IMG/VR virus record: IMGVR_UViG_3300045988_086940
Length of the DNA stretch: 33,189 bases
From: a virus
Reading direction: 5' to 3' (one strand)
Below, in pieces: positions 2,780-31,579 of the stretch. Under the pieces are notes generated by a model. The model made no database searches and was not told the origin of the DNA. It was given only the letters and a program-made list of their open reading frames with translations. Position 1 is the stretch's first letter, and every line of letters begins with the position of its first letter. The translations under genes and the position numbers were made by a program.

Positions 2780-2948
2780 AGGCATCGGACCGGAAGAAGG
2801 AACAATCGTAACAGAAGAGGAAGCATTTGATTATGCATTAGAGCGTTGCCTAAAAGGAACAGAAGAAGACCAGGAAGAGTTTAGAAAAGAACTTGTCGAG
2901 TGGTTCTTCTCCGGCAACTGGATAGATGAAGAAAGGAGCGGATTGTAA
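2766..2948 (+). CDS. Hypothetical protein (60 aa)
   Basis: ORF coupled to both neighbours (ATG overlaps). Confidence 0.55.
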   Translation: MKVYRGIGPEEGTIVTEEEAFDYALERCLKGTEEDQEEFRKELVEWFFSGNWIDEERSGL

Positions 2949-3568
2949 TGCCACTTGCAAGCTACGAAGAACTTAGAAAAGTAGATATCAAGAAGTACTG
3001 CAAGAAAAGAGACGGACTTGATTATCTCAACTGGGCAACATGTATCAACCTTTTGAGAATGCATGGAGCAGACAAGGTTTACTGGGAACCAGTACCGGAT
3101 CCAGTAACCGGTAGCAGTCTTAGAAAGACAGATGTAGAGTTCTCTGATAAGAACGGAAATAAAAACAGATGTTACGAGACACTGATTAAGGTTGTTATTG
3201 ATGAGAACACGTACTTCATGCAGACACCTGTAATGAATGGAAGCAATCCGGTAAAGGATAATTCAATGACACAGCAGAGAGTATGGAACAGCATGTGCAG
3301 AGCATTTGTAAAGTGTGTTGCTATCCATACTGGACTAGGATTTGATCTGTGGCTGAAAGAAGAGAACCACAACGAACCATTCATTCCGGAAACACTAAAG
3401 AAACGTGCATCCGCTGCAAAAATCAAAACAATCAAGCAGATATGTACAAGTCACGGTGTCGATGGAGACGCTTGGGTTGCTGGAAACGGAAAGACTTGGG
3501 AAGAACTAACAGAAGAAGAAGCGGCCATGATGCTCAATGCATTGAAACAGAAGTATGGTGATGAGTAA
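2948..3568 (+). CDS. Single-strand annealing protein, Sak3/DUF1071-like (Rad52 superfamily)
   Basis: Motifs recalled for this family are present: DYLNWATCINLLRMHG, TPVMNGSNPV, RVWNSMCRAFVKCVAIHTGLGFDLWLKEE. Confidence 0.7.
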   Translation: MPLASYEELRKVDIKKYCKKRDGLDYLNWATCINLLRMHGADKVYWEPVPDPVTGSSLRKTDVEFSDKNGNKNRCYETLIKVVIDENTYFMQTPVMNGSNPVKDNSMTQQRVWNSMCRAFVKCVAIHTGLGFDLWLKEENHNEPFIPETLKKRASAAKIKTIKQICTSHGVDGDAWVAGNGKTWEELTEEEAAMMLNALKQKYGDE

Positions 3569-6940: not shown

Positions 6941-7515
6941 AATACAAAGTTGGAGACAAGGTAAGAGTCAGAAAAGATTTGAAAGTTAGCAAAGAATATG
7001 ACGGAATGATATTTAATGACGTTATGTCACAGCATTGCGGAGAAACTGTAACCATTAATGAGGTTTTCTCGCGTGGTTACTATCGCATTGTTGAATATGG
7101 ATGTTGTTGGACAGATGGAATGCTTGAAGGATTGGCAGATGAAGAACTGACAGCAGAAGAAGCAACTAAGATTTTAAGTGAAATTTGTTGTGAAAACGAA
7201 TTATGTGGTGGATGTCCTATTAGTGAAGCAAAAGGAAAAATGACGTGTCAAAGCTTCCGAAGAGATAAAACAGAAGAAGTGCTTGAAATCCTCAAGCGGT
7301 GGAAGAAAGATCATGAGAAGAAAGAAGTTGAGGTGGAAAGCAAGTTATATTGTCGAATTATTGATGGCGGTGATGGCTTAACCGTTCGCTCAGAAGCGCT
7401 TCAGGATGGAATCAACCTGAACGATGAAATAAAAGAGATACTTGCAAAGTACTGCTCGGAGCATGTGGGTGATTACTTTGCGTTATGTGAGAAAAGATGG
7501 ATGGTGAAGCAATGA
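6937..7515 (+). CDS. Hypothetical protein (192 aa) with an SH3/KOW-like N-terminus and a Cys-rich middle
   Basis: MKYKVGDKVRVRKDL start with RBS gagaaagagagg. CCENELCGGC cluster. Confidence 0.55.
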   Translation: MKYKVGDKVRVRKDLKVSKEYDGMIFNDVMSQHCGETVTINEVFSRGYYRIVEYGCCWTDGMLEGLADEELTAEEATKILSEICCENELCGGCPISEAKGKMTCQSFRRDKTEEVLEILKRWKKDHEKKEVEVESKLYCRIIDGGDGLTVRSEALQDGINLNDEIKEILAKYCSEHVGDYFALCEKRWMVKQ

Positions 7516-7733
7516 TGAACACAGGAGAAAAGATAGATTACATGATTCAGTGTTTGAAAGTCGCAAAAGCTGAGTATGAGTACACGGCTGATTACATTGC
7601 AAATGAACCGACTGAAGGACAAGAGTTGTGGGAGTTCCTTGATACACACAGAAGTCCAAACAAAGCATTAATTAAGGACAACTTGAAGAATGTGGCAAGA
7701 ATGGGATTCCAGCTTGCGAATGAGGTGAAATGA
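7512..7733 (+). CDS. Hypothetical protein (73 aa)
   Basis: ATGA overlap with the upstream stop. Coupled to the methyltransferase start. Confidence 0.5.
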   Translation: MMNTGEKIDYMIQCLKVAKAEYEYTADYIANEPTEGQELWEFLDTHRSPNKALIKDNLKNVARMGFQLANEVK

Positions 7734-9100
7734 TGAAAGATTTAATCGTAGATTGCTTTGCTGGTGGAGGGGGTGCATCAGTTGGAATCGAGATGGCACT
7801 CGGCAGACCGGTAGACATAGCAATCAACCATGATTCAGACGCTATATTGATGCATAAGACCAACCACCCGAACACACTTCATCTGACCGAGGATATTTTT
7901 AAAGTTAACTTGAAGAAGTATGTAAAAGGACGGCATGTGGCTCTTATGTGGGCGAGTCCAGATTGTACAAGCCATTCCAAAGCAAAGGGCGGTAAGCCAA
8001 GAGAAAAAGGACTTCGGATTCTTCCGTGGGCGGTATACAAACACGCAAAGGAGATTCTTCCAGATGTGGTGCTGATGGAAAATGTGGAAGAAATACAACA
8101 GTGGGGTCCGTTGGACGAAAAAGGTTATCCGATACCGGAGAAAAAAGGTGAGGATTATAAAAAATTCATTACAGCAATGAAGAGCCTCGGGTACCGTTTC
8201 GGTAGTAGAGAATTGATAGCTGCGGACTACGGAGCACCAACCACAAGAAAGAGATGGTATGCAGTATTCCGTAGAGATGGACGGGAAATCAGATGGCCAG
8301 AGCAAACTCACAGTGCTGACGGCATTGGCTTTAAGAAGTGGAAACCTTGTGGAGATTACATTGACTGGTCAGATCTTGGCAGTTCGATATTTGACCGCAA
8401 GAAGCCACTTGCAGAAGCTACACAGAAGAGAATTGCAAACGGCATCAAGAAATACGTTATCGATGCTGAGTCTCCTTATATCGTGAGAAACGGAGAAGCA
8501 TTGGCATACATCATCCAGTATCACGGAGAGACGAGAGCCGGTGATTCAAGAGGACAGCTTTTGACAGAACCGATCAAGACGATTGATACATCGAATAGAT
8601 ATGGACTTGTGACAGCATTTATCACGAAGTATTACAAGACGGGGATTGGACAGGGCTGTGATGAACCATTACATACAATTACGACATCTCCGGGGCATTT
8701 CGGATTGGTATCAACATTTCTGATTAAGTATTACGGCGGTGGGTGCGGACAGACACTGGATAGACCGCTTGATACGATCACAACGAAAGACCGTTTTGGA
8801 CTGGTGAATGTAATCCTGGATATCAAGGGCGAGAAATACATCATATCTGATATCTTTTTGAGGATGCTGAAACCGGAAGAATTAAAGCTGATGCAAGGAT
8901 TCCCAAAGGATTACATTATCGAAAGGGATTACAACTGGAAGAAATATCCGATTGCAAAGCAAGTCGCAAGAATCGGGAACAGTGTTGTGCCAATCATGGC
9001 AGAAAAGCTTGTAGAAGCAAACTGTCCGTATCTGAAAGTCGGTGAGAGAATGCCGAACATGAACATTGATGATACAGAAGAACAATTAAGGTTTGCTTAA
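7730..9100 (+). CDS. dcm: DNA (cytosine-5)-methyltransferase, orphan
   Basis: Motif I DCFAGGGG, motif IV SPDCTSHS, motif VI MENVEE, motif VIII TTRKRWY, motif X RIGNSVVP. No adjacent endonuclease. Confidence 0.9.
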   Translation: MMKDLIVDCFAGGGGASVGIEMALGRPVDIAINHDSDAILMHKTNHPNTLHLTEDIFKVNLKKYVKGRHVALMWASPDCTSHSKAKGGKPREKGLRILPWAVYKHAKEILPDVVLMENVEEIQQWGPLDEKGYPIPEKKGEDYKKFITAMKSLGYRFGSRELIAADYGAPTTRKRWYAVFRRDGREIRWPEQTHSADGIGFKKWKPCGDYIDWSDLGSSIFDRKKPLAEATQKRIANGIKKYVIDAESPYIVRNGEALAYIIQYHGETRAGDSRGQLLTEPIKTIDTSNRYGLVTAFITKYYKTGIGQGCDEPLHTITTSPGHFGLVSTFLIKYYGGGCGQTLDRPLDTITTKDRFGLVNVILDIKGEKYIISDIFLRMLKPEELKLMQGFPKDYIIERDYNWKKYPIAKQVARIGNSVVPIMAEKLVEANCPYLKVGERMPNMNIDDTEEQLRFA

Positions 9101-9118
9101 ATAACAGCACCTTGACAA

Positions 9119-9147
9119 TTGAATATTGATGGTTGGAATGGTATAAT
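9119..9147 (+). promoter_or_regulatory. Strong promoter: TTGAAT, 17-nt spacer, extended -10 TGgTATAAT
   Basis: TTGAAT at 9119-9124, TATAAT at 9142-9147, preceded by tgg. Confidence 0.65.
9121..9136. repeat. Left copy of a perfect 16-bp inverted repeat (gaatattgatggttgg)
   Basis: Its reverse complement ccaaccatcaatattc occurs at 9857-9872. Confidence 0.9.
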
Positions 9148-9182
9148 TTCCGTATAAATTAAATGTACGGGAGGAAATGCCA

Positions 9183-9473
9183 ATGAAAGTAATTATTAGC
9201 CAGATGGTCGTGTTTAATGGGAGTGACAATTTTCCTTATAATTGGAGTAAGACCTATGAATCCAATGTAATTCCACACGTCGGTGATACTATCGAGGACC
9301 CGATTTGGAAAGATCCAGGAGATTATGAGGTAACCGGAGTTACCATTAACTATGATGCGGATGAATGCTATGTAGGTGTAACTGACTACACGCCTGTAAT
9401 CCCGATTGAGCGGAAAGAAGAATTCGGGAAGATGGCAGAATTACACGGATGGAAAGCAAACTGGATGAGATAA
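9183..9473 (+). CDS. Hypothetical moron protein (96 aa)
   Basis: RBS gggagg lies 8 nt before ATG 9183. The ORF track starts at 9177. Confidence 0.55.
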   Translation: MKVIISQMVVFNGSDNFPYNWSKTYESNVIPHVGDTIEDPIWKDPGDYEVTGVTINYDADECYVGVTDYTPVIPIERKEEFGKMAELHGWKANWMR

Positions 9474-9483
9474 GGAGAGAGTC

Positions 9484-9843
9484 ATGGATTATATTAATAA
9501 ACTTTTTGGACAGTATCCATTTATTTATTATATCAACGGGAAATACTATGCGTTTGGAACCAATGTGTGTACAGAATGCAACGGAAAAAGCTTATTATTG
9601 GAATCAAAATATAAAGCGTTTGAGGAAAGCATAAAAAACGATGTGACAGATGAAGAAGCGTGGATAATATTCCATAAATTATCGAGCGAAGCAAGTGGTG
9701 CAGAGACGAAGAGTAATGTTCATGCAAAAGAAGAGTTTGCCAAATTCAATTTTAGCGAAGACGATATAAAAGAGCTGACAAAGCAAATAGAAAGATATAG
9801 GAGTTACTGGTTAGAGCACCATTTAGGAAATCGAGGCAGATAA
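9484..9843 (+). CDS. Hypothetical moron protein (119 aa)
   Basis: RBS aaggagagag. CTECNGK motif. AT-rich codon usage. Confidence 0.55.
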   Translation: MDYINKLFGQYPFIYYINGKYYAFGTNVCTECNGKSLLLESKYKAFEESIKNDVTDEEAWIIFHKLSSEASGAETKSNVHAKEEFAKFNFSEDDIKELTKQIERYRSYWLEHHLGNRGR

Positions 9844-9854
9844 CTGTAAATATT

Positions 9855-9890
9855 TACCAACCATCAATATTCGGTGGTTGGTATTTTTTT
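9855..9890 (+). terminator. Rho-independent terminator
   Basis: Stem taccaacca/tggttggta, 11-nt loop, then a run of 7 T. Confidence 0.8.
9857..9872. repeat. Right copy of the perfect 16-bp inverted repeat
   Basis: ccaaccatcaatattc. Forms the 5' arm and loop of the terminator hairpin. Confidence 0.9.
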
Positions 9891-9919
9891 ACGCATTTTT
9901 AAGGAGAAGAGGTGAAGAA

Positions 9920-10099
9920 ATGAAGAAAATAGCGGTAGCTGCTATGAAGAAACAGATTCCGAAGAGGCCTGTAACATATACACCAACCAATAGAGCAGAT
10001 TGTCCGGTTTGCGGTGAAACAGTTAGAGGAATAGACAAGCCTTATGGAAAATATTGCGGTTGGTGCGGTCAGAGATTGGATTGGAGTGATGAACAGTGA
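9920..10099 (+). CDS. Zinc-ribbon protein (59 aa)
   Basis: CPVCG...CGWCG. RBS aaggagaagaggtg. The track start at 9878 lies inside the terminator. Confidence 0.55.
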   Translation: MKKIAVAAMKKQIPKRPVTYTPTNRADCPVCGETVRGIDKPYGKYCGWCGQRLDWSDEQ

Positions 10100-10970: not shown

Positions 10971-11228
10971 ATGAGTAAACTGGATAAAGCGAAAGAAAGA
11001 ATATTATCAAAGCCTAAAGACTATACTTATACTGAGGCAAGATATTTACTTAGCAAACTGGGATTTAAAGAATTTAATAAGGGGAAGACATCCGGGTCAA
11101 GGGTACGATTTTATCGGGAAAGTGATAAAAAAGTAATATTATTACATAAACCACATCCAGAAGATGAAATGGATGCTGGAGCAGTAAAAGATTTGGTTGG
11201 ATTTTTAAAAGAATTGGGTGAGGTGTAA
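10971..11228 (+). CDS. hicA: HicA-family toxin (mRNA interferase)
   Basis: ARYLLSKLGFKEFNKGKTSGSRVRFYRE...ILLHKPHP matches the YcfA/HicA pattern. Confidence 0.8.
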   Translation: MSKLDKAKERILSKPKDYTYTEARYLLSKLGFKEFNKGKTSGSRVRFYRESDKKVILLHKPHPEDEMDAGAVKDLVGFLKELGEV

Positions 11229-11746
11229 TGAAAAACAATGTGCTTGAATACAAGGGGTATCATGCGAAAATAGAGTTTGATACGGAAACATATACACTGC
11301 GTGGAAAAATTGAAGGTATAAATGATTTGGTCAATTTTGAAAGTAGAGATGGCTTAAAAATTGAAAAAGAATTTCATGATGCAGTGGATGACTATTTAGA
11401 GTTTTGTGAAGAGGTTGGGAAAAATCCGGACAAAGAATATAGAGGGGTATTTAATGTTCGAATAAATCCAGAATTGCATAAAAAATTAGCGTTGAAAGCA
11501 TATGCAAATGGAGATTCCTTAAATGCTACAGTTGAGAAAGCAATTCAAGAATATTTAACAGAGTATTCGGAAACAAATATCCAGTTGGAAAAGACGATTA
11601 AAATATTATCAAGTATGTTAGAAACAAAGGGATTATATAATAGAGGGAAAAATATTCCAATAGAAAATGAATCAAAAATTATTCCATTTTTTAATAAAGC
11701 AACAAATGTGAATATGCAATATAAACAAGAGGAGAGAGTGAAGTAA
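11228..11746 (+). CDS. hicB: HicB-family antitoxin with RHH domain and a roughly 60-aa C-terminal extension
   Basis: N-terminal YKGYHAKIEFDTETYTLRGKIEGINDLVNFES. RHH-like FNVRINPELHKKLALKAYANGDSLNATVEKAIQEYL. Extra tail from residue ~111 to 172. Confidence 0.8.
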   Translation: MKNNVLEYKGYHAKIEFDTETYTLRGKIEGINDLVNFESRDGLKIEKEFHDAVDDYLEFCEEVGKNPDKEYRGVFNVRINPELHKKLALKAYANGDSLNATVEKAIQEYLTEYSETNIQLEKTIKILSSMLETKGLYNRGKNIPIENESKIIPFFNKATNVNMQYKQEERVK

Positions 11747-12210: not shown

Positions 12211-12227
12211 CTAATACCCAAAATCTT

Positions 12228-12299
12228 GGACCATTAGTTCAGTGGTAGAACATTCGCCTCATAAGCGAAATGTCGTAGGTTCGATTCCTACATGGTCCA
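12228..12299 (+). tRNA. tRNA with CAT anticodon (elongator Met, or Ile2 if lysidine-modified)
   Basis: Full cloverleaf folded by hand: acceptor ggaccat/atggtcc, D arm gttc/gaac, anticodon arm ttcgc-ctCATaa-gcgaa, T arm gtagg-ttcgatt-cctac, discriminator A. CCA is not encoded. Confidence 0.9.
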
Positions 12300-12328
12300 T
12301 GAAATAAACTAGAACAGAGGTGACGACA

Positions 12329-13050: not shown

Positions 13051-14419
13051 AATTGTTCCGTATTATGCTTATACGGATGGCCCTGATGCGGTAAAAGTGC
13101 TTGCGGTCGGGAAACTGATTGTGGATCCGTGGCAGAGTGAAGTGCTGAATGATTGGATGGGGCGTACAGAGGATGATGTTTGGTCAGCGCCGACATGTGG
13201 CTTATCTGTTCCAAGACAGAACGGGAAAACACTGGATACTTCCGGGCGGATTGCATCCGGAATGATCCTGTATGCAGAATGGGTTATATACACAGCTCAT
13301 CTGCAGAAAACTGCAACAGAAACTTTTATGGAATTGCGCGGCTTGTTTGAAAGCAGAGGACTCCGTAAGTATGTAAAAGAAATTAAGGCGGCACTCGGAA
13401 GAGAACAGATTATTCTAAAAAATGGTGGAAGAGTAGTATTTGTTGCCAGAACCAGGAATGGAGGTCGAGGACTGCACGGTGATTGTCTTGTGTTCGATGA
13501 GGCACAGGAACTTACAAGCGAACAACAGGCTTCATTCCTGCCGGCAATATCAGCATCCAGAAATCCACAGACGATTTATTTGGGAACACCACCGGATGAG
13601 AATTGCACAGGTATAGTATTTCGGAAAATCAGAAAACGGGCAACAGAAGGCGAGAGCAAATCCACGGCCTGGACAGAATATTCCGTGAAAGAGATTGGAG
13701 ATGTTACTGATCGTCGGAGATGGGCGGAGTGCAATCCGGCATTAGGGCGCAGAATGACAGAAACAACCATAGCTGCAGAGTGTGAGCAGATGGATGCGGA
13801 CACATTTGCAAGAGAGCGTCTTGGCTGGTGGTCGCCAATCAATAATGATCAGGATTACGCAATTGATAAGAAGAAATGGGAAGCGTGTGCTTCAGAAAAA
13901 GAAAAGCCGGAAGGGAAAACTGCTTATGGCGTAAAGTTTTCTTCTGATGGTTCGGCGGTAGCATTATGCGGAGCTGTTTGTCCGGAGGTAGGGGAAGCGA
14001 GAATTTCGCTGATCGAGCTAAAAGCAACTGACAGAGGAATCCAGTGGCTTGCAGACTGGTTGAATCAGAGATATAAGATGGCGAGCTGTGTGGTGATCGA
14101 TGGAAGAAATGGAGTTGACTTCTTGATAGAGAAGATAACACCGGTGTGGAAATATAAGCAGTCAATTGTTCGACCGGCAGCAAAAGAAGTGATAGCAGCG
14201 GCGAGTCAGCTATCACAGGAAATCAATGAACAGACTGTAACATGGTATAAATACCAAGAAATACTGAATGAGTCGGCAATTACGTCTGTAAAAAGACCGA
14301 TTTCCGGTGGCTGGGGATTTGGTGGAGAAAACTCGATCCCGATTGAAGCAGCAGCACTTGCACTTTGGGGATGCAGAACATCGAAACGAAATCCGAACAG
14401 AAAGATGAGGATAGGATAA
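12986..14419 (+). CDS. terL: Terminase large subunit
   Basis: Walker A VPRQNGKT, Walker B CLVFDEAQEL, C-terminal nuclease-sized domain. RBS ggagaaagacg before ATG 12986. Confidence 0.85.
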   Translation: MTKSEKSCRHEKLMGSQTPSDRIVPYYAYTDGPDAVKVLAVGKLIVDPWQSEVLNDWMGRTEDDVWSAPTCGLSVPRQNGKTLDTSGRIASGMILYAEWVIYTAHLQKTATETFMELRGLFESRGLRKYVKEIKAALGREQIILKNGGRVVFVARTRNGGRGLHGDCLVFDEAQELTSEQQASFLPAISASRNPQTIYLGTPPDENCTGIVFRKIRKRATEGESKSTAWTEYSVKEIGDVTDRRRWAECNPALGRRMTETTIAAECEQMDADTFARERLGWWSPINNDQDYAIDKKKWEACASEKEKPEGKTAYGVKFSSDGSAVALCGAVCPEVGEARISLIELKATDRGIQWLADWLNQRYKMASCVVIDGRNGVDFLIEKITPVWKYKQSIVRPAAKEVIAAASQLSQEINEQTVTWYKYQEILNESAITSVKRPISGGWGFGGENSIPIEAAALALWGCRTSKRNPNRKMRIG

Positions 14420-22434: not shown

Positions 22435-24387
22435 ATGGCAACGGAACTTGCAAAGGCATATGTGCAGATCATACCTTCCGCACAAGGCATCAGTGGAAAA
22501 ATACAACAGGCGATAGAACCGGAGGCAGAAGTGGCCGGAACCTCTTTTGGCGGAAAACTTGTCAGTACAATCAAAAATGTGATTGCGACTGCAGCTATCG
22601 GTAAAGCGCTTGTATCGACAATCAATGAGGGTGCGGCAATCGAACAGAGCATGGGCGGAATTGAAACGTTGTTTAAGGAATCAGCGGAAAAGATGCATCA
22701 AAACGCTATCAATGCGTATAAAACAGCAGGATTATCTGCAAATGCCTATATGGAGCAGTCGACCTCGTTTGCGGCATCTCTGTTAAGCTCGCTTGGAAAT
22801 AATACGTCAAAAGCCGCTGATATAGCTGATATGGCAATGACGGACATGTCAGACAACGTAAATAAAATGGGAACCAACATGGAAGACATCACAAATGCGT
22901 ATCAGGGATTCGCAAAGCAGAATTATACGATGCTGGACAACCTAAAGCTCGGCTATGGCGGAACAAAAGGGGAGATGCAAAGGCTCCTTGATAAAGCGCA
23001 GGAACTCAGTGGAGTAGAATACAACATCGATAATCTGGCAGACGTCTACAGTGCGATTCATGTGATCCAGGGAGAGCTTGGAATTACAGGAACGACAGCT
23101 ATAGAAGCGGAAGGGACAATATCTGGTTCGTTTAATATGATGAAAGCGTCTGCGACTAATTTCTTGGCATCCTTAACTGGTGTAAAAGATGGAAACGGAA
23201 ATGCGATTCTTTCGGTGGAGGATTCCTTAAACGATCTTGTGAATTCTGCGGTTTCTTTTGCGTCAAATGTCATTCCGGCAATAGGCAGCGTAATGACATC
23301 ACTACCGAAAGCTATAGTACAGGCGATGCAAACCTATGGTCCGCAAGCAATAGTGGCAGCGCAAGAAATGCTGGCGAATTTGTTGACATACATACCAAGT
23401 ATGCTGACGAGTTTTACAACGGTTGGCGTTGAGCTGCTTAATCAAATATCGAGCGGACTTACATCTGGAATACCGACATTTTGCGCACAGTTTCTTCCAA
23501 TGCTTGTGACGATTTCGGAAAATTTGAGAGCAAACGCCGGACAACTGATAGATGCCGGACTTAACCTGATTGAAAATCTGGCTCAAGGAATAGCAAATTC
23601 TCTGCCGACATTAATTGCAACCGTACCGCAGATCATCACAAATATTGCCGGAATCATCAATGACAACATGCCGAAAATCCTTTCAACAGGGATAGAAATT
23701 CTCATAACGCTGACAAAAGGAATCATAAATGCAATTCCGACATTGATCGCAAATCTTCCAAAGATATTTACGGCAGCAGAAAGCGTATTGAGTGCGATGA
23801 ACTGGCTTGGAGTTGGAAAGAATCTCATGAATCTCCTTGTTAACGGAGTAAAAGCACTAGTACATTTACCTGGACAAATCATTAAAGGAGCGTTCAACAC
23901 GGCTAAGCAAATGATCACGACAGGCTTTTCGTGGGGAAGCGTTGGGCGCAATATCATACACGGAATTGCAAACGGACTAAGTGCGGCTGGACATATGTTG
24001 TGGGACACTGTAAAAGGAATTCTCGGAAGCTTCAAGGACAATGTACTCAGTTTCTTTGGAATCCACTCTCCGTCACGTTGGGGTGCGTTTGTCGGAAAAA
24101 TGATTGATGCAGGAGTCGCGAATGGATTGATTGATAATACATCGCTTGTATCGAATGCGGCTCTTGAATTACAGAATTCAGTGAAAAAGCCAATCGAAGC
24201 AACAGCAGATCTTACGGTTAGAAGTAATGCTTTAGCAGAAAATGAAAAAAATACACTTGCACAGAAACTGGAACTTTTGATTGAATATTTAAGAAATAAT
24301 GCAAGAACAAAAGATAGTATTGTGATTAATCTCAATGACAGAGAAGTGGCAAGGGCTTTGAAAGAATTGGGGGTTGTATTCGCTTGA
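22435..24387 (+). CDS. Tape measure protein
   Basis: 650 aa, helical and Ala/Ile/Leu-rich, with repeated ...IPTLIA... segments. Canonical position. Confidence 0.9.
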   Translation: MATELAKAYVQIIPSAQGISGKIQQAIEPEAEVAGTSFGGKLVSTIKNVIATAAIGKALVSTINEGAAIEQSMGGIETLFKESAEKMHQNAINAYKTAGLSANAYMEQSTSFAASLLSSLGNNTSKAADIADMAMTDMSDNVNKMGTNMEDITNAYQGFAKQNYTMLDNLKLGYGGTKGEMQRLLDKAQELSGVEYNIDNLADVYSAIHVIQGELGITGTTAIEAEGTISGSFNMMKASATNFLASLTGVKDGNGNAILSVEDSLNDLVNSAVSFASNVIPAIGSVMTSLPKAIVQAMQTYGPQAIVAAQEMLANLLTYIPSMLTSFTTVGVELLNQISSGLTSGIPTFCAQFLPMLVTISENLRANAGQLIDAGLNLIENLAQGIANSLPTLIATVPQIITNIAGIINDNMPKILSTGIEILITLTKGIINAIPTLIANLPKIFTAAESVLSAMNWLGVGKNLMNLLVNGVKALVHLPGQIIKGAFNTAKQMITTGFSWGSVGRNIIHGIANGLSAAGHMLWDTVKGILGSFKDNVLSFFGIHSPSRWGAFVGKMIDAGVANGLIDNTSLVSNAALELQNSVKKPIEATADLTVRSNALAENEKNTLAQKLELLIEYLRNNARTKDSIVINLNDREVARALKELGVVFA

Positions 24388-25238
24388 TAGAAGTCAGATA
24401 TATAAGTTCAAATAAAAAAGAATATAACCTAATTGGAGATAAAATGCGGCCGACAGACGGGAGTTTTCATTCGTATGAGTGGACTCCAGAAGTGATTGAA
24501 CGTAAAGTCGGAGAAACAGTAACAGGATTCACAAAAGCATCAAAGATATATCAGATTACGCTTACCATACGCGGAAAATTAGAAGATAGGAAAGCACTAA
24601 TAGATGACATCACTGATGCATTTGAACATGATGTAATAAACGTATCACCAGGAAGAATATATTTCGGAGATTGGTATATTGACTGCTTCATAAAAGACAA
24701 AACTACGGGAATATCAGGAACATGGAACAACTGGACGGAACTTCAGATAGGAATATATTGCCCATATCCATCATGGATAACCGAATGTAAGCGTTCATTC
24801 CAGAAAATTATTAACGGATCAGGCGAGTCAGAAGAGTTTTTGGATTATGAGCATGATTACGGTTACGATTACACTATGCCATACGGCGGTGATGTGATCT
24901 GGCAGGTTGACCATTATGCGCCATGCGAGTATGAGATGATTATATACGGCCCCTGCGTGGATCCACGCGTTGTGATAAATGGACATATTTATCAAGTATA
25001 CGCGACTCTGGACGAGAATGATTATCTGAAGATCAATAGCCGTGAAAATTCCGTTGTGCAATATCTGGTCAACGGAACGCAGCGAGATCTATATGATTAC
25101 CGGGTAAAGATAACGGGATCACTGTTCGATCCAATCAAGCCGGGGAATGTCCGAGTGGTGTGGTCAGGGGAATTCGGGTTCGATCTAACACTATTCTGCG
25201 AAAGGAGTGAGCCAAGATGGAAGATCCAAGGCAGTTAA
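24384..25238 (+). CDS. Distal tail protein (Dit-like)
   Basis: First gene after the tape measure. 284 aa. Confidence 0.6.
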   Translation: MIEVRYISSNKKEYNLIGDKMRPTDGSFHSYEWTPEVIERKVGETVTGFTKASKIYQITLTIRGKLEDRKALIDDITDAFEHDVINVSPGRIYFGDWYIDCFIKDKTTGISGTWNNWTELQIGIYCPYPSWITECKRSFQKIINGSGESEEFLDYEHDYGYDYTMPYGGDVIWQVDHYAPCEYEMIIYGPCVDPRVVINGHIYQVYATLDENDYLKINSRENSVVQYLVNGTQRDLYDYRVKITGSLFDPIKPGNVRVVWSGEFGFDLTLFCERSEPRWKIQGS

Positions 25239-26224
25239 TTCTTGCAGATCAGAACCTGCGCGACATCAAGCCGGTGATGAATGCGGACATCGACTTTGCT
25301 GTCGGATCGGATGAGAATGACTACGAAATTAAAATCCGGCGCGATCGGTGGGATAAGCGGTATACATACGGAAATATATTCTACATTAAAAATACAGAGT
25401 TCGGAGGGATTATCGGAAGAAAAAAGATAAACACGGAGAAGGACACGATATCACTGTATGGCCGGACATGGCGCGGGAAATTGGATAAGAAGATTATCCG
25501 GCCGCCGGAAGGACAGGATTACCGGAAAGTATCAGGGGAGTTGAATGCAGTGCTGAATACGATTGTTACGGAGCAGTTCAATGACTATTTTGTCGTATCG
25601 CAGAACGACACCGGAGTGAGTGTGACGAATTTCCAGTTCGATCGATACTGTACTTTGTTGACAGGGATCATAAAGATGCTGAAAAGTGTTGGATATAAGT
25701 TACATATCGAATACATTCAGCAGGAACGCGGCCAGCCTGGGTATGTAGAGCTGTCTGCCGTACCGATCGTGGACTACTCAGACGCAAAAGAACTGTCGCA
25801 GGATAGCCGGTTGAACTTCGTGTTCGATGAAATGAAAAACGGAGTTAACCACCTGATCTGCCTGGGAAAAGGGGAACTTCAGGACAGGCAGGTAATTGAC
25901 CTGTATGTCGGCCTAAACGGTAGTATCGGAACCACGCAGTATTATACCGGTATTAAGGAGGTCACCGATACATACAAGGATACATCCTCTGAGAGTGACG
26001 AACTGGAAGAGAAAGGACGGGAAAAACTGCGGGAACTAATGAATAAGACATCGTTTAGCATGGATGTCGAGAGCTTGGGCATAGAGGTAGAGATCGGAGA
26101 TATAGTAGGCGGCCGCGATTATGTAACGGGCATGTATGCGGCCAAGCCAATCGCAAAGAAGATCTATAAAGTAGAGGGTGGAAAAACCTCTCTTGAATAC
26201 GAAATAGAAGGAGATGATAGTTAA
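25217..26224 (+). CDS. Tail-associated / baseplate hub protein (Tal N-terminal-like, Gp37-like)
   Basis: Second gene after the tape measure. 335 aa. Confidence 0.45.
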   Translation: MEDPRQLILADQNLRDIKPVMNADIDFAVGSDENDYEIKIRRDRWDKRYTYGNIFYIKNTEFGGIIGRKKINTEKDTISLYGRTWRGKLDKKIIRPPEGQDYRKVSGELNAVLNTIVTEQFNDYFVVSQNDTGVSVTNFQFDRYCTLLTGIIKMLKSVGYKLHIEYIQQERGQPGYVELSAVPIVDYSDAKELSQDSRLNFVFDEMKNGVNHLICLGKGELQDRQVIDLYVGLNGSIGTTQYYTGIKEVTDTYKDTSSESDELEEKGREKLRELMNKTSFSMDVESLGIEVEIGDIVGGRDYVTGMYAAKPIAKKIYKVEGGKTSLEYEIEGDDS

Positions 26225-27078
26225 TGGAACTGGTAACAGGACGGGCAGGGAGCCCGCACATAACGTCACAGCAGGACCGGCAGAAGCATCAGGGAATCTG
26301 GGGCGATGGAGCATATATCCTTGCGACGGGAAATCAGCTCGAACCGCAGGTGCAGAGCTCAAATAAAATATTGATTAAGGATGGCGCTCTGATGTTTCAG
26401 GGTGCTATTTTTTCGGTCAAAGTCGGGACTACAGATGAAATCACAATCAATAATGGGAATCAAGGCATGCAAAGAAAGGATCTTGTCGTCGCCCGGTATA
26501 CATATGATTCAGCGCAGCAGAAAGAATCCGCAGAATGGATTGTGATTCAAGGAGAACCAGCGGCAAGAAATCCTGTAGCACCGTCAAGTACGAGTGGAGA
26601 TATACAGGAGGGAGATACTACTGTAGACTGCCCGTTTATGATCGTAAATCTGGATGGGATCAATGTCACGGGAGTGGATATTATACCGGAGGTCGCACCG
26701 GACATCCCTACGCTAAATGCGGCTTTGTCCAATATTAGGTTTGAGGTCATCGAATCTACCCGTTATTATGTTAAAAAATACGAAAACGGCTGTTTTGAAG
26801 CATGGGCAAAAACAACTGTTATTGGTACCCATCTGAGTTTTACGCAAATTGGAACATCCGGAATATACTATGCGCGTGTCACAAATATAGGAATCGGAAT
26901 CAGAGCGAAGGAAGTGTACGATATTGAATATACACCTCAAAATAATGGAATAGTCTGGGGAGCGTCACCAAGTATGAATTCCAACATGTCTGCGATAGAC
27001 GGATATGTCGTACAGTATGGAGCCGACAAAACACGCAACACGAATATTCGAGTTCATGTGACCGGCAAATGGAAATAA
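26224..27078 (+). CDS. Tail fibre / receptor-binding protein, currently expressed C-terminal variant
   Basis: Position in the tail tip module. Contains IR-L (26709-26734) in frame, encoding TLNAALSN. Confidence 0.6.
   Translation: MELVTGRAGSPHITSQQDRQKHQGIWGDGAYILATGNQLEPQVQSSNKILIKDGALMFQGAIFSVKVGTTDEITINNGNQGMQRKDLVVARYTYDSAQQKESAEWIVIQGEPAARNPVAPSSTSGDIQEGDTTVDCPFMIVNLDGINVTGVDIIPEVAPDIPTLNAALSNIRFEVIESTRYYVKKYENGCFEAWAKTTVIGTHLSFTQIGTSGIYYARVTNIGIGIRAKEVYDIEYTPQNNGIVWGASPSMNSNMSAIDGYVVQYGADKTRNTNIRVHVTGKWK
26709..26734 (+). repeat. IR-L of the candidate invertible segment (tacgctaaatgcggctttgtccaata)
   Basis: 24/26 match to the reverse complement of 27429-27454. The perfect 16-bp core is 26714-26729. 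Confidence 0.9.
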
Positions 27079-27438
27079 TTACTGCTTGGTGTACCGTACG
27101 GCTACAAATCCAGCATATGTACTCCAGTTACTATGAGTTGTAATTACAACTTGCTGACCATTTGCAATAATCCGTGCTGCAATACTGTTTGCAACATTAT
27201 TAGGGTCTACATACGGTAATGGATATGCGGCCCCTCCCGAGATAACCATACTGTATGTTGGATCTATCCAGAAATAATAGGCGTTGGTGATACCTGTATT
27301 TATAGTTTTGCTGGTATTGTTAGGCAACACACCTATATCGACAAGTCGCATATATACAGGTTTGCCACCAAATGTTTCGCCCGTTAAGATTTTGCCTGCG
27401 CCAATTGACATGTCATATGCATTTATTTTATTCGACAA
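27079..27438 (-). CDS. Promoterless alternative C-terminal cassette for the tail fibre gene (silent in this orientation)
   Basis: No ATG or RBS. The annotated start is the TTG Leu codon inside IR-R, and an in-frame TGA lies 8 codons upstream. Its stop abuts the stop of 26224..27078 (TAATTA). The sequence looks like a fibre tip: GKPVYMRLVDIG...WIDPTY...VAVRYTKQ. Confidence 0.6.
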   Translation of the reverse strand: MSNKINAYDMSIGAGKILTGETFGGKPVYMRLVDIGVLPNNTSKTINTGITNAYYFWIDPTYSMVISGGAAYPLPYVDPNNVANSIAARIIANGQQVVITTHSNWSTYAGFVAVRYTKQ

Positions 27439-27454
27439 AGCCGCATTTAACGTA
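27429..27454 (-). repeat. IR-R of the candidate invertible segment (minus strand reads tacgttaaatgcggctttgtcgaata)
   Basis: Inverted copy of 26709-26734. Also in frame, encoding TLNAALSN. Confidence 0.9.
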
Positions 27455-27482
27455 TAGATTCAAAAAAGAAAGGATGATGAAA

Positions 27483-28169
27483 ATGAAGATTATTTTTAAC
27501 GATGCAACAGAAATCACCGTGCAGCAAGTAGAGTCTCACGGCAATTATCTGTGTGTCCTGACCATTGGGAATACTCCGGAGCAGCTTAAAGTGTTGTTCA
27601 CTGACACGAGCCGCACATCGAAGATAATCGTGAAGGAGCGTGGCCAGACGGTCGCTACATACGAGGGATACACGGCGTTTTACAGGACGGAGATCTATAC
27701 AGGTAAGATCTATGGCGTAGTAATGTACAAGCCGGAGAAAACGCCGGAGGTGCAGTCGTCTATGGTACAGGCGGCAGTCACTGTTGCGCAGATACAGGCA
27801 CAAAGTCTGACGGATGAGCAGGCACTTACCGTGAAAGATATCTATCCTGTATGGGATGGGAATGGTGTGTCATATCAGAAAGACTTCTATTTGACACATA
27901 ACGGAAAACTGTATAAGGTTCTGCAGGCACATACATCACAGTCGGACTGGGTGCCGGATGCGGCACCGTCACTCTTTGCAGAGGTGCTCCCGGGACAGGA
28001 CGGTACTGGGATTGGAGCGTGGGCACAGCCGGGATCTACAAATCCGTATATGGCCGGAGACCGGGTGACACACAACGGCAAAACATATGAATCCTTAGTG
28101 GATAATAATGTATGGGAGCCCGGTGCGCAGGGATCAGAAGCACTGTGGAAGGAAATAGAAACAGAATAA
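27483..28169 (+). CDS. Tail-associated protein with two CBM5/12-like carbohydrate-binding repeats
   Basis: YQKDFYLTHNGKLYKVLQAHTSQSDWVP and YMAGDRVTHNGKTYESLVDNNVWEPG resemble the chitin-binding type-3 repeat. RBS aaagga before ATG 27483. Confidence 0.5.
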   Translation: MKIIFNDATEITVQQVESHGNYLCVLTIGNTPEQLKVLFTDTSRTSKIIVKERGQTVATYEGYTAFYRTEIYTGKIYGVVMYKPEKTPEVQSSMVQAAVTVAQIQAQSLTDEQALTVKDIYPVWDGNGVSYQKDFYLTHNGKLYKVLQAHTSQSDWVPDAAPSLFAEVLPGQDGTGIGAWAQPGSTNPYMAGDRVTHNGKTYESLVDNNVWEPGAQGSEALWKEIETE

Positions 28170-28185
28170 GAAAGGCGGGTAGCAT

Positions 28186-28329
28186 ATGACAGAAATCAAA
28201 GAGGTGAAAGCAGAGAAAACCACAGTGAATGCCGGGGAGCGAATTCATATATCATTTGAATTTTGGTACGATCAGGACTATCCATATGATTACCCGCACG
28301 ACTATCCAATTTCAAGCGAAAGAAAGTGA
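28186..28329 (+). CDS. Small protein (47 aa; below the track cutoff), tentative
   Basis: My own translation is MTEIKEVKAEKTTVNAGERIHISFEFWYDQDYPYDYPHDYPISSERK. Fills the gap before the Ig-like gene. Confidence 0.35.
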   Translation: MTEIKEVKAEKTTVNAGERIHISFEFWYDQDYPYDYPHDYPISSERK

Positions 28330-28340
28330 GGAAGAAACAC

Positions 28341-29249
28341 ATGAGTGATATTGTAAGGGCTTATGCCAAATACAAAGGGCAGCAGTACAATGCATCTTAC
28401 AGCTCCGGGACGCAGAAGTGGAGCGTGGACATCCCGTCCGGATCAGAATCATCTTACAGCCAGTCGAATCATACATACCCGATTGAGCTACATGCATTCG
28501 ACGCGGCGGGCAACGAGACGATCATGTACGCTACGGACGACACATACGGGGATCAACTGAAATTCCGTGTCCTTGAGAAAACGAAGCCGACTGCGACTAT
28601 CAAGTCTCCGACGCAGGGCAGCGTGCTTGGAAGCGCGACGCAGGATATTGTCATGGAGCTTTCCGATGCCGGCGGATCTGGTCTCAACATGGCGTCCGTA
28701 ATCTTCAAGGTCAACGGCGTTCAGGTAACACAGGGACTGTCTTGTAGCGATTCAGGTGGAAAGAAGACCTGCACGTATCATGCAACCAACCTGTCAGACG
28801 GTTCCAACAGTGTCAGCCTGCAGGTGTCCGATAATGACGGCAATGTTTCTGACGTTGCGACAGTATCCTTTGTGATCAGTACATCCGCGCCTACGCTAAA
28901 CATTACGAGTCCTAAAGAAGGACTGCTGACGAACAGCAAAAAGGTTACGGTATCAGGTACGGCAACGGCCGGGTCTGACGCGGTAACTCTCTCTAAGGTA
29001 ACTATTAACGGAGAGGAAGTAGCAGTCGGTGAAGGCGGCGCATTCTCGAAAGAAATTACCCTTAATGAGGGCGCGAATACAATTTCTATTATCGCTGAGG
29101 ACAGTATCGGGAAGACAACAAAGGTTGATAGGCATGTTACAGTCGATACCAAGGCACCGATCATCAGCGATGTCGAGGCAGAAGCGACCACAGTTGACGC
29201 CAACAGCACGATCCACCTGACCTTCAAGGTTGTGGATCCGGCAGAATGA
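28341..29249 (+). CDS. Ig-like domain repeat protein (tail decoration/adhesin)
   Basis: Repeated beta-sandwich-like segments: KPTATIKSPTQGSVL..., APTLNITSPKEGLL..VTVSGTAT.., TISIIAEDSIGKTT. RBS gtgaggaag. Confidence 0.6.
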   Translation: MSDIVRAYAKYKGQQYNASYSSGTQKWSVDIPSGSESSYSQSNHTYPIELHAFDAAGNETIMYATDDTYGDQLKFRVLEKTKPTATIKSPTQGSVLGSATQDIVMELSDAGGSGLNMASVIFKVNGVQVTQGLSCSDSGGKKTCTYHATNLSDGSNSVSLQVSDNDGNVSDVATVSFVISTSAPTLNITSPKEGLLTNSKKVTVSGTATAGSDAVTLSKVTINGEEVAVGEGGAFSKEITLNEGANTISIIAEDSIGKTTKVDRHVTVDTKAPIISDVEAEATTVDANSTIHLTFKVVDPAE

Positions 29250-29250
29250 A

Positions 29251-29622
29251 ATGATCATCAGGGTATGGGGCATAGTGAACTCTATTGAGGTGGAGTTTAC
29301 GCCCATCCCGGACCGTCCGGGGTACTGGGAGGGAACCGCCCCACGAATGCCGGGACTGCAGGAAATCGAGATCTGGGCGGAGAGTAGCACAGGAGCAAGA
29401 GGGCATTTACAATGCGAAGTGATGATCGAATATCATGCCCACACTGAGGCGCAACTGCTCCAGGATTGTACAGAGGCGGATTTGGTCGGACCGAAGCGGG
29501 AAGTCAGATTGCTGTTGCTGCCGTGGGTAGCACGGCTCGTCACTCTCCGGGAAACACAAGTCCTGCAGGAAAACTATAATGCGCGGCTGAAATGCTGCAG
29601 AAAGGCGGTGCGTCATGGATAG
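29251..29622 (+). CDS. Hypothetical tail-module protein (123 aa)
   Basis: ATG lies 2 nt after the upstream stop. N-terminus VEFTPIPDRPGYWEGTAPRMPGLQEIEIWAESSTG. Locally higher GC. Confidence 0.45.
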   Translation: MIIRVWGIVNSIEVEFTPIPDRPGYWEGTAPRMPGLQEIEIWAESSTGARGHLQCEVMIEYHAHTEAQLLQDCTEADLVGPKREVRLLLLPWVARLVTLRETQVLQENYNARLKCCRKAVRHG

Positions 29623-29899
29623 TGCTATATTTGAGCTTGGGGAAAAGAAATATGTATGCATCAGCGTCAGGAGTACATGCGGGAAGCCATTTGATGTGAC
29701 TTCTGCGAAATACATCCTGAAAAACGGAGATGAGAAAGAAGCATCAGGAGAGTGCGAGATCAGCAAGCGAGATAATAAAGAGACAATCCTGTCTGCATTG
29801 ATTCAGCCAATGATCAAGGGAGCGACGTACATATTGGAGTACACATACGAGATACCACCGGAGATTATCAAGCATGTTGTGAGGGTAATGGTGAAATAA
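29615..29899 (+). CDS. Hypothetical protein (94 aa)
   Basis: Overlapping start. Last gene before the terminator. Confidence 0.5.
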   Translation: MDSAIFELGEKKYVCISVRSTCGKPFDVTSAKYILKNGDEKEASGECEISKRDNKETILSALIQPMIKGATYILEYTYEIPPEIIKHVVRVMVK

Positions 29900-29928
29900 G
29901 GCAGGTGATACATATGAGCATCAGAGAC

Positions 29929-29952
29929 AGACCGTGAACCGGTCTTATTTTT
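29929..29952 (+). terminator. Rho-independent terminator
   Basis: agaccg tgaac cggtct followed by tattttt. Confidence 0.7.
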
Positions 29953-29981
29953 ATGCATAAATTATATGGAGGTATAGACCC

Positions 29982-30293
29982 GTGTATATAAGCATAGGGA
30001 CAATTATTACGGCAGGCAGCCTGATTGGTGCGCTGGGAGTGATCGGAGGAGTGCTGATTGCAGCATATAAATTCTTTAAAAAGCCGGAAGAGCTCGAGAA
30101 GAAGATCAAAAAGATCCGAGCAACCCATGAAGAGGACATCTGGAAGATCAACGAAGAACAGTGCCTAATTACCTACGGGCTTCTCGCCTGCCTGAAAGGA
30201 CTCAAGGAAAAGGGTTGCAACGGTCCTGTAACGGAAGCCATAAATAAGATTGAGAAGCACCTGAACAAACAGGCGCATGATATGGAGGAATGA
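29982..30293 (+). CDS. Single-TM membrane protein with a coiled-coil tail (lysis-associated; holin-like or regulator), GTG start
   Basis: TM segment ISIGTIITAGSLIGALGVIGGVLIAAY. RBS ggaggt. First gene of the lysis cassette. Confidence 0.45.
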   Translation: MYISIGTIITAGSLIGALGVIGGVLIAAYKFFKKPEELEKKIKKIRATHEEDIWKINEEQCLITYGLLACLKGLKEKGCNGPVTEAINKIEKHLNKQAHDMEE

Positions 30294-30646: not shown

Positions 30647-31579
30647 ATGAGTAAGACAGCAGCAGGATTAGTTGCATTTGCAAAAAGCAAACTTGGTACA
30701 CCGTATATTTACGGAGCAAAAGGAACCGTAATGAGTCTGTCGCAGATCCGAGCATTAAGAAAACAGTACGGATCCAACTGTGTATGGACATCTGATGACA
30801 GCAAAGCCGGTAAGGTATGTGTTGACTGTTCCGGTTTGATTAGCTGGTATACAGGTACCATCCGTGGTTCGGGACAGTATAAGAGCACTGCGGTAGAAGT
30901 GCTTCCAATCAGTCAGAGAACCAACGCCCACATTGGATGGGCGGTGTGGATGAAGGGGCATATCGGTATCTATCTTGGAAACGATCAGTACATCGCAGCG
31001 GACGGGTCCGCATATGGTGTGAGAATTGCCAAGTTATCACAGAACAGATTTACACATCTGCTGAAGCTTTGTGATATCGATTATGGACAGGGAACAACAT
31101 CAGGACCTAAAGAGACAATCAAGCCTTCTGGAGGTTATTATAATGCAGGAGTAGATTTCACTTATGCAGTACGTGCCGGCGGAAAGACTTATCCAGCAGT
31201 AACGAACCTGGCAGATTATGCAGGCGTGAGGGGAATCCCGATCACAGACATTGCTATTAAATGTAGTGTCGGAAACATCAAGTACAGAGTACATGTTGCA
31301 GCAAACAAGAAGAAAGGAATCGCAGGCAGATGGCTGCCATATGTATCTGGATACAATTGGAAAGACAGCAACAACGGTTATGCCGGTAATGGTCTTCCGA
31401 TTGATGCAATCGAGATTATCTATACAGCTCCAAACGGCAGCACCCAGAAAGCGCAGTACAGAGTATCACCGGTGAATAGAAATTATTATTCATGGCAGTA
31501 TAACAATGAAACTGGTGGGGGACAGGATGGATATGCTGGTGCATTTGGAGTTCTGATCGATAGATTCCAGTTGTTCTAA
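30647..31579 (+). CDS. Endolysin: N-terminal NlpC/P60 (C40) peptidase plus a C-terminal wall-binding region
   Basis: GTPYIYGAKG, catalytic Cys in VDCSGLISW, His in GHIGIYLG. The C-terminal ~150 aa is a distinct domain. Confidence 0.85.
   Translation: MSKTAAGLVAFAKSKLGTPYIYGAKGTVMSLSQIRALRKQYGSNCVWTSDDSKAGKVCVDCSGLISWYTGTIRGSGQYKSTAVEVLPISQRTNAHIGWAVWMKGHIGIYLGNDQYIAADGSAYGVRIAKLSQNRFTHLLKLCDIDYGQGTTSGPKETIKPSGGYYNAGVDFTYAVRAGGKTYPAVTNLADYAGVRGIPITDIAIKCSVGNIKYRVHVAANKKKGIAGRWLPYVSGYNWKDSNNGYAGNGLPIDAIEIIYTAPNGSTQKAQYRVSPVNRNYYSWQYNNETGGGQDGYAGAFGVLIDRFQLF

Follow-up and report, generated by a model that had tools for sequence, protein, structure and literature searches.

In the Mu G/Gin, P1 C/Cin and p15B Min systems, an invertible DNA segment swaps the receptor-specific C-terminal part of a tail protein, giving alternative host ranges. 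These systems act on the long fibres of Proteobacteria myophages. They combine an adjacent serine invertase with gix/cix sites of 26 bp, which have dyad symmetry and a 2-bp central overlap, with a Fis-dependent enhancer and with a chaperone gene (U/U') that inverts together with the cassettes. The shufflon of plasmid R64 acts on pilV through sfx sites and a tyrosine recombinase, Rci, which is encoded beside it. Prophages of Bifidobacterium and Eggerthella lenta harbour Rin shufflons, which use 11-bp rix sites and have the gene for their tyrosine invertase next to them (Mavrich et al. 2018, PMC6109161; PMC8778435). For two tRNA-Met bifidoprophages, 689b-1 and Bb423phi2, the same authors proposed that an invertase supplied in trans flips a segment of ~500 bp, with exchange at a repeat of 8 bp, CAGGGTTA (PMC6109161). 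More generally, tail fibre proteins were an enriched target class in a genome-wide screen for gene-altering programmed inversions (Milman et al. 2023, PMC9881135), and the notion of the intragenic inverton is well established (Chanin et al. 2023 preprint, PMC10028968). Here we analyse the virus record IMGVR_UViG_3300045988_086940 (hereafter the window, that is, the whole stretch of 33,189 nucleotides), in which two inverted repeats enclose the variable end of a tail gene encoding a receptor-binding protein (RBP) together with a second, silent version of that end. This locus is a real, naturally flipping two-state switch of the RBP head in a prevalent human-gut prophage. The logic of such a switch is already known; what is unusual is that neither the locus nor the phage carries a dedicated invertase, while sister loci do.

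The two arms of the repeat (Table 1) are identical at 24 of 26 positions and share a perfect 16-bp core, TAAATGCGGCTTTGTC. With a repeat finder the pair grows to 31 nt (26704-26734 / 27429-27459; 87% identity), and it is by far the best inverted repeat within positions 24000-30000. With up to 3 mismatches allowed, the core occurs at only two places in the 33-kb window, whereas shuffled sequences average 0.37 matches. Both arms encode the peptide TLNAALSN, each in the frame of its own open reading frame (ORF). The plus-strand gene ends with a stop codon at 27076-27078 and the minus-strand ORF with one at 27079-27081, the two abutting as TAATTA. The two arms with their core, the common peptide and the abutting stops had been reported in a preliminary description made from the letters alone, and they hold on re-reading the sequence. 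The segment contains the two abutting head cassettes only, without a co-inverted chaperone gene, and 28 bp separate the right repeat from the start codon of the next gene. In the minus-strand cassette, an in-frame TGA lies 3 codons before the Thr of the repeat and 8 codons before the nominal TTG start. A promoter and terminator scan revealed no Shine-Dalgarno sequence and no convincing promoter upstream of it, and nothing convincing for stand-alone expression, in agreement with the earlier view that this ORF cannot be expressed as it stands.

We flipped the segment in silico and searched public data for the predicted 286-aa product. The flipped fusion, which joins the constant N-terminal 170 aa to the second head (KINAYDMS...RYTKQ), was found verbatim, with 100% identity and coverage, in protein WP_055144532.1 of [Ruminococcus] torques (P0001 in our set of homologues). 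The prediction that inversion would fuse a constant N-terminus to a different tip was therefore correct. This isoform is listed in 203 collection blocks of the index and the window isoform in 79; among the entries are RefSeq proteins from isolates, such as WP_055144532.1 and WP_349179144.1.

The preliminary description had also proposed a search of related genomes for the opposite orientation. Among 16 near-identical prophage loci, eight are flipped (L001-L008) and eight are oriented as in the window. The flanks of seven flipped loci are collinear with the window at 99.8-99.96% identity up to position 26734 and again from 27429 on. In all eight, the 746 bp between the flanks match the window only as reverse complement, at 99.2-99.7%. 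The eighth locus, L005, has flanks at 98.5-98.7%, a left-flank alignment that starts at 24762, and a different backbone. Two single-nucleotide polymorphisms (SNPs) in the repeat behave in the same way in the eight flipped loci, the outer one (C/T) staying with the flank and the inner one (C/G) travelling with the segment. The crossover can therefore be placed inside the 16-bp core.

Broader scans added few loci. The left junction had three matches in Joint Genome Institute (JGI) metagenomes, two in the window orientation (one of which ends 22 nt after the repeat) and one flipped. The 16-mer core returned from IMG/VR mostly single chance matches in unrelated viruses, the inverton loci among them being only those already found. 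The short contigs encoding the silent ORF as protein P0263 are low-coverage fragments crossing the right repeat. A truncated homologue, P0047, comes from one contig with a nonsense mutation and another ending 25 nt past the repeat. A change from TCA to TAA, seven codons past the repeat, ends the RBP of L118 (1688-2221; one metagenome, head-2 isoform expressed) at 177 aa.

Haplotypes were then compared after normalising the orientation. On a first background (A), the flipped loci L001 and L003 differ from the window-oriented L009 by 2 and 1 SNPs, respectively, over 15.6 kb of prophage. Since two window-oriented loci, L009 and L013, also differ by 2 SNPs, opposite orientations on this background are no further apart than identical ones. 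On a second background (B), the comparison spans 20.8 kb and takes in host flank; here the window-oriented L012 is separated from the flipped L002 by 10 positions and from the flipped L004 by 9. Both orientations thus occur on each of two haplotype backgrounds. The flip is recent and recurrent, and at least two independent inversions are required.

The coding constraint on the minus-strand cassette, a point raised by the preliminary description, was examined by comparing the window with L121, a relative that expresses head 2 and carries head 1 as its silent cassette, so that one of the two copies is silent in each comparison. The ratio of nonsynonymous to synonymous substitution rates (dN/dS) was close to 0.1 throughout (head 1, 0.09; head 2, 0.10; constant part, 0.085), with synonymous sites near saturation (proportion of synonymous differences, pS, 0.65-0.74). 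Both cassettes are thus functional and under purifying selection; one that is never expressed would not stay so constrained.

What the switch exchanges can be read from the protein family and from structural models. PHROG profiles cover only residues 1-171 of the 284-aa window isoform. When 22 homologues are aligned, their N-terminal domain proves invariant and leads to a junction of the form PDIPTLNA[AS]LS, beyond which the C-termini, of ~110 aa and of many types, cannot be aligned. The family is thus modular, with hypervariable C-termini that switch at an LNxxL junction behind a conserved N-terminus. AlphaFold models of both isoforms (predicted local distance difference test scores of 69 and 72) contain a beta-sandwich at residues 40-153, a short helix at 161-170/174 that corresponds to the repeat-encoded peptide, and then two different C-terminal beta-sandwiches. 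The best PDB matches of both isoforms are structures of the RBP of lactococcal phage p2 (2x53_A and 2wzp_A; probability 1.0, E 1e-4 to 2e-6, with TM-scores of only ~0.3), to which the window isoform adds 2bsd_A and 1zru_B from the same protein. The model of the head-2 isoform also matches SPP1 gp22. Head 1 gives Foldseek matches to Helix pomatia agglutinin, an H-type lectin (target-normalised TM-score 0.51-0.62), and aligns with homologues that match Pfam PF21882 Gp53-like_C. A phmmer search against PDB sequences gave no match at E <= 1, hence no sequence homology to a solved RBP. The position of the gene, after those for Dit and a minor tail protein, fits the RBP of a p2-type tail-tip module, which comes after Dit and Tal. 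On these models the protein is best called a siphophage RBP of shoulder-neck-head organisation. The earlier name of tail fibre protein was right as far as a tail gene with a swapped C-terminus is concerned, but not as to the fibre. The switch would swap the head at the neck, and the repeat is predicted to encode the neck helix.

We next consider the relatives of this gene. Loci encoding its N-terminal domain (21 fetched from GTDB genomes and 80 from IMG/VR) fall into three groups. Many have no detected repeat. In a second group, 22 loci besides the window contain one inverted silent cassette, with the repeat at the homologous LNxxL junction; no tyrosine recombinase gene was found in any of the 22 within the fetched flanks. 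In the third group, 12 loci (L027, L035, L046, L052, L056, L058, L060, L062, L063, L080, L093 and L112) encode a tyrosine recombinase of ~330 aa just after the first silent cassette and have 2-4 sites, usually with further cassettes behind; L128 is also recombinase-bearing. The embedded enzyme matches Pfam Phage_integrase and SAM_4/SAM_1 and scores 223.7 bits with an XerA-type NCBIfam model (cut-off 220), which makes it Xer-like; it has 3,519 homologues at E <= 1e-20.

Within this gene family, at least four site types occur without a recombinase nearby. They comprise that of the window (TAAATGCG[GT]CTTTGTC, 16 bp), AAATAAGGATTTG (13 bp), AATGCAGATTTGGCGGAGTT (20 bp), TGAATTAAATGGCAAAT (17 bp) and a perfect 50-bp repeat in L098. 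Repeats tend to be longer in recombinase-less loci (16-50 bp) than in recombinase-bearing ones (13-15 bp). Four sites are found in L027, L046, L093 and L128, as against two in the window. In L027, the sites (GAGTTAAATAGCAA) alternate in orientation and bound four cassettes plus the recombinase gene. The tail module of L128 is 83% identical to that of the window up to position 26691 and 79% identical from 27480 on. Between these limits, from the neck to the gene with carbohydrate-binding modules (CBM), L128 carries a four-site shufflon (7001-9973) whose site, TTAATTGGTAAT, encodes LIGN, with an Xer-like recombinase at 8383-9372. At the place where its sister phages have a complete shufflon with a tyrosine recombinase, the window thus has a minimal cassette module that lacks one. 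Its switch belongs to a large family of RBP cassette switches in Lachnospiraceae prophages.

Several relatives show traces of exchange between these arrangements. L120-L122 (P0033 and P0042; 82-88% identity) express head 2 with an additional ELIG before NK (TLNASLSELIGNK...). This suggests a remnant of a recombinase-type site beside the window-type site, head 2 having once been part of a recombinase-bearing shufflon. In L115 and L117 (gene positions 1143-1160 and 1329-1342), a recombinase-type inverted repeat, CTGAATTAAATGGCAAAT, is followed ~170 nt on by an orphan window-type site, which lies just before the CBM gene and to which no site in the expressed gene corresponds. The head that is silent in L026 is expressed in L094, and the one silent in L094 is expressed in L064. 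As the heads are shared in a chain, more than two of them circulate in this sub-family by cassette exchange. The phage integrase of L128 is a large serine recombinase (14119-14879, minus strand).

Contig ends give another view of these sites. In assembly, a de Bruijn graph breaks contigs at a repeat when both orientations are present. Contigs L074 and L116 end at ...AAATAAGGATTTG, L099 at ...AAATAAGGATTTGTC and L029 at ...AATTAAATAACAAT, while L098 ends at the outer end of its own 50-bp repeat and L121 at the outer end of its own right repeat. Such exact ends at recombinase-less sites, including 13-bp ones, are indirect evidence of mixed orientations within samples. Genes for shufflon-type recombinases serve as a positive control: they are very often assembled alone, on contigs of 1.1-1.2 kb, and the ends of L211-L213, as well as the start of L213, coincide exactly with an inverted site, CTGGATTAATTAGGAA.

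How the locus compares with the described systems can now be detailed. Like Mu G, P1 C and Min, it places alternative C-terminal coding sequences behind a constant N-terminal part. In contrast to them, it has neither a serine invertase, nor dyad-symmetric 26-bp sites, nor a co-inverted chaperone. The absence of a serine invertase (Resolvase family) among the 30 ORFs of the window in Pfam and PHROGs scans agrees with the preliminary description, as does the weakness of the dyad symmetry, the half-sites read from the sequence agreeing at only ~4/7 positions. This symmetry is stronger in some sister site types (e.g. GACAAAT-AAGG-ATTTGTC), a comparison that is confounded by the conserved LNxxL codons. 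With the R64 shufflon, the locus shares a switch of tyrosine-recombinase type acting on an adhesin C-terminus, asymmetric sites without dyad symmetry, and inversions only. It differs in that R64 switches a plasmid pilus adhesin and not a phage RBP, that Rci is adjacent, and that the site sequences are unrelated. Of the analogies first drawn with Mu G, P1 C and plasmid shufflons, the last is thus the closest, while the serine machinery of Mu and P1 is absent.

The likeness to the Rin shufflons is more extensive. Both act on the RBP gene of a siphophage, in which a constant N-terminal part is combined with variable C-terminal cassettes that lack a promoter and stand each behind a short asymmetric repeat; inversion joins a new head to the constant part, the hosts are human-gut Gram-positive bacteria, and arrangements differ among near-identical genomes, as they do among the prophages of the window. 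Relatives of the window (L027, L046, L093, L128 and others) also share the Rin layout, with an Xer-like armless tyrosine recombinase among 2-4 cassettes. The window itself differs by its two cassettes and two sites, instead of at least three, by the lack of a recombinase in the locus, and by a site (TAAATGCGGCTTTGTC) unrelated to rix (TTCCCTAACCC). Its host phylum is Bacillota and not Actinobacteriota, and the Lachnospiraceae recombinase is likened to Rin by layout, not by sequence. Bifidoprophages 689b-1 and Bb423phi2 provide a parallel for simple inversion at a short repeat with no recombinase flanking the locus. That case, however, consists of two genomes, an 8-bp repeat and genes of unknown function, whereas here the target is an RBP, the crossover is mapped, the orientations are found in hundreds of assemblies and recur, and sister loci bear a recombinase. 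As in the inverton screens, the repeats lie within coding sequence, there are two in-frame alleles, and orientation is polymorphic within a species. The confirmed tail examples of those screens are COG5301 or Mu-type prophage fibres (PMC9881135; PMC10028968), and we found in them no mention of this RBP family or of Lachnospiraceae prophages. The literature that we searched, outside which most subscription journals lie, contains no description of the RBP family, of Lachnospiraceae Xer-like shufflons or of the switch of this prophage.

The window is a rotated copy of a circular metagenome contig of 33,189 bp, L010 (ERZ28575667 scaffold_730), and is probably the complete excised genome of a temperate siphophage. 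Integrated copies adjoin genes for a HAD hydrolase and polA in Mediterraneibacter, and the source names give [Ruminococcus] torques and Mediterraneibacter faecis as hosts. The attP/attR region lies at ~31766-31827, where the homology between the circular form and the right end of the prophage decays. It contains a perfect 9-7-9 palindrome, CCTTGTAAA-TCCAGTG-TTTACAAGG (31785-31809), which is plausibly the integrase core site; the host-side junction sequence is a diverged copy of it, and no tRNA gene was found at the prophage junction. A tyrosine integrase gene, not mentioned in the preliminary description, means that the window is not recombinase-free (Table 1). L005 (1-20861) combines a different backbone (a 916-aa tape measure and other head genes) with the same RBP, inverton and lysis module at 98-99% identity, and from this locus the adsorption and lysis block appears to move between phages as one unit. 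Searching cultured-phage DNA with positions 25200-28200 gave two short irrelevant matches, hence no cultured relative with the locus. At the protein level, the only members of the family in cultured phages are distant and unannotated ones, from C. scindens phage phiCs5676-1 and Bifidobacterium phage PMBT6. Besides Sak, other genes of the phage encode a C5 cytosine DNA methylase (7730-9100), a HicB-family antitoxin-like protein (11228-11746) and a PD-(D/E)XK nuclease (4881-5213), and a tRNA-Met (CAT) gene (12227-12300) lies just upstream of the packaging genes.

Table 1. Coordinates, in the window, of the RBP switch and of other phage features.
Feature	Position	Strand	Basis or remark
RBP gene, isoform expressed here (284 aa: constant part + head 1)	26224..27078	+	ORF; PHROGs 9994, 13141 and 25635 match only aa 1-171
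Constant part, putative shoulder domain (~162 aa), common to both isoforms	26224..26708	+	conserved in 22 diverse homologues; dN/dS 0.085 vs L121
Left inverted repeat, recombination site, predicted to encode neck helix TLNAALSN	26709..26734	+	core 26714-26729; the two repeat SNPs bracket the crossover
Head cassette 1 (IRFEV...GKWK), currently expressed	26734..27078	+	resembles gp53-like_C / H-type lectin domains
Invertible segment between crossover cores	26730..27433	.	blastn vs L001-L008: collinear flanks break off at 26734 and resume at 27429
Head cassette 2 (KINAYDMS...RYTKQ), silent in this orientation	27079..27429	-	no start signal; fusion form in P0001 and L001-L008
Right inverted repeat	27429..27454	-	core 27434-27449; just upstream of the ribosome-binding site of the next gene
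Tape measure	22435-24387		order of tail genes
Dit	24384-25238	+	PHROG 33
Minor tail protein	25217-26224	+	PHROG 538
Downstream gene with CBM5/12 carbohydrate-binding modules	27483..28169	+	Pfam CBM_5_12 4.6e-18; its start bounds the variable region
Ig-domain protein	28326-29249		downstream of the CBM5/12 gene
NlpC/P60 endolysin	30647-31579		downstream of the Ig-domain gene
Tyrosine integrase, only site-specific recombinase of the window	31856..33052	-	Pfam Phage_integrase 3.7e-23; PHROG 1 integrase
Sak-type single-strand annealing protein	2948..3568	+	Pfam SSAP_Sak 1.4e-6; bears only on inversion by homologous recombination

The mechanism that we favour is a conservative reciprocal recombination within the 16-bp core of the two inverted sites, which flips the ~0.7-kb segment. 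As the sites lie in the codons of the predicted neck helix TLNAALSN, the shoulder (aa 1-170) becomes joined either to the lectin-like head 1, as in the window, or to head 2, whose beta-sandwich is of another kind, with only one head expressed per genome. The flip presumably changes the cell-wall saccharide receptor and hence the host strains that are bound. The flipping enzyme would be a site-specific tyrosine recombinase acting in trans, supplied by a co-resident prophage or by the host or, less likely, being the phage's own integrase. The sites, the two natural orientations, the place of the crossover, the recurrence of the flip, the constraint on both cassettes, the RBP-like fold and the relatives with a recombinase are shown; we infer which enzyme acts, that one lineage can flip back and forth, and that host range is affected. 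Taken as a whole, an active two-state RBP switch served by a tyrosine recombinase in trans seems to us moderately probable.

Several observations weigh against this explanation. The locus has no recombinase that could be named as the flipping enzyme, the att region of the integrase is unlike the repeat site, and the dyad symmetry of the site is weak. The sites of the window share only TAAAT with those of the recombinase-bearing relatives (TTAAAT[AG]GCAA and TTAATTGGTAAT), and a known Rin-like enzyme would not be an obvious fit to them. The observed polymorphism could also arise if inversion were as rare as ~1e-6 per generation. Contigs of other site types stop exactly at the site, but at window-type sites such ends are seen only in relatives at 82-88% identity (within the right repeat in L120, at its outer limit in L121). 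Among the near-identical prophages, L119 and L126 stop 22-25 nt past the left repeat, a weaker signature. Finally, the 16 near-identical loci come from 16 samples with one assembled orientation each, so that mixed orientation within one population is not seen directly.

Some of these points would be expected if the inversion were driven by homology, host RecA or the phage Sak flipping the segment at short homology and host-range selection amplifying the products. Such a process would require no recombinase in or beside the locus and no high rate in the population; the phage does encode a Sak single-strand annealing protein; the longer repeats of recombinase-less loci point in the same direction; and a crossover where identity is perfect is also what homology-driven exchange predicts. 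Nevertheless, RecA works efficiently only on stretches much longer than the 16 bp of perfect identity found here, and 13-16 bp is very short for exchange by either RecA or Sak. Recombinase-less loci with repeats of 13-15 bp still give contigs ending exactly at the repeat, dedicated tyrosine recombinases are used at the homologous position in the same gene family, and single-strand annealing does not readily give clean reciprocal inversions. We therefore regard a homology-driven flip as unlikely.

The phage tyrosine integrase might alternatively moonlight as an invertase, with the neck sites as secondary sites. The 33-kb genome encodes no other site-specific recombinase, and the integrase belongs to the same superfamily as the shufflon recombinases of the relatives, to which it is however only distantly related (E = 8.6e-8), with the long N-terminal architecture of integrases and not that of an Xer-like invertase. 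Neither the attP/attR region nor its palindrome shows meaningful similarity to the repeat, and L005 bears the same inverton module on a different phage backbone, all of which makes this role of the integrase quite improbable.

The single assembled orientation in each of the 16 samples could also be left by one or two old inversions, whose fixed alleles would have been spread by phage recombination with no ongoing switching. This we consider very improbable, given that opposite orientations lie on backgrounds 1-2 SNPs apart in 15.6 kb and that both occur on two haplotypes. The silent cassettes are moreover intact, with dN/dS ~0.1 while synonymous divergence is saturated across lineages, and the architecture recurs with different site sequences in many lineages. 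Assemblers can be misled by inverted repeats, but the chance that the second orientation is an assembly artefact is negligible, as the 26-bp repeat is shorter than the k-mers in the contig records (k115-k141) and both orientations occur in hundreds of independent assemblies, the two isolate proteins included.

Returning to the switch with an enzyme in trans, the recombinase-less two-cassette invertons may more generally be 'orphan' switches that use an invertase encoded elsewhere (a co-resident shufflon, the host or the integrase), or else their 13-16-bp sites may flip without a dedicated enzyme; we put forward this generalisation only tentatively. The recombinase-less members of the family pose a concrete question, namely which enzyme, acting in trans, flips them. 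The Lachnospiraceae RBP shufflons with embedded Xer-like recombinases would extend the Rin-type system from Actinobacteria to Bacillota, and a systematic search for contigs of 1.1-1.2 kb ended by inverted sites could exploit this mark of active shuffling.

Gut phages of Lachnospiraceae are abundant but difficult to grow, and what is chiefly lacking for them is knowledge of their host range. Judging by the number of collection blocks with either isoform, the prophage is common in human-gut metagenomes. The switch would be a form of bet-hedging, in which one genome can produce virions with two specificities, and host prediction and strain tracking by sequence should count the silent cassette as coding. 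For engineering, the neck helix offers a natural, proven splice point for swapping RBP heads. If orphan switches do exist, host-range switching would be set by the recombinase repertoire of the lysogenised cell, coupling prophages to each other.

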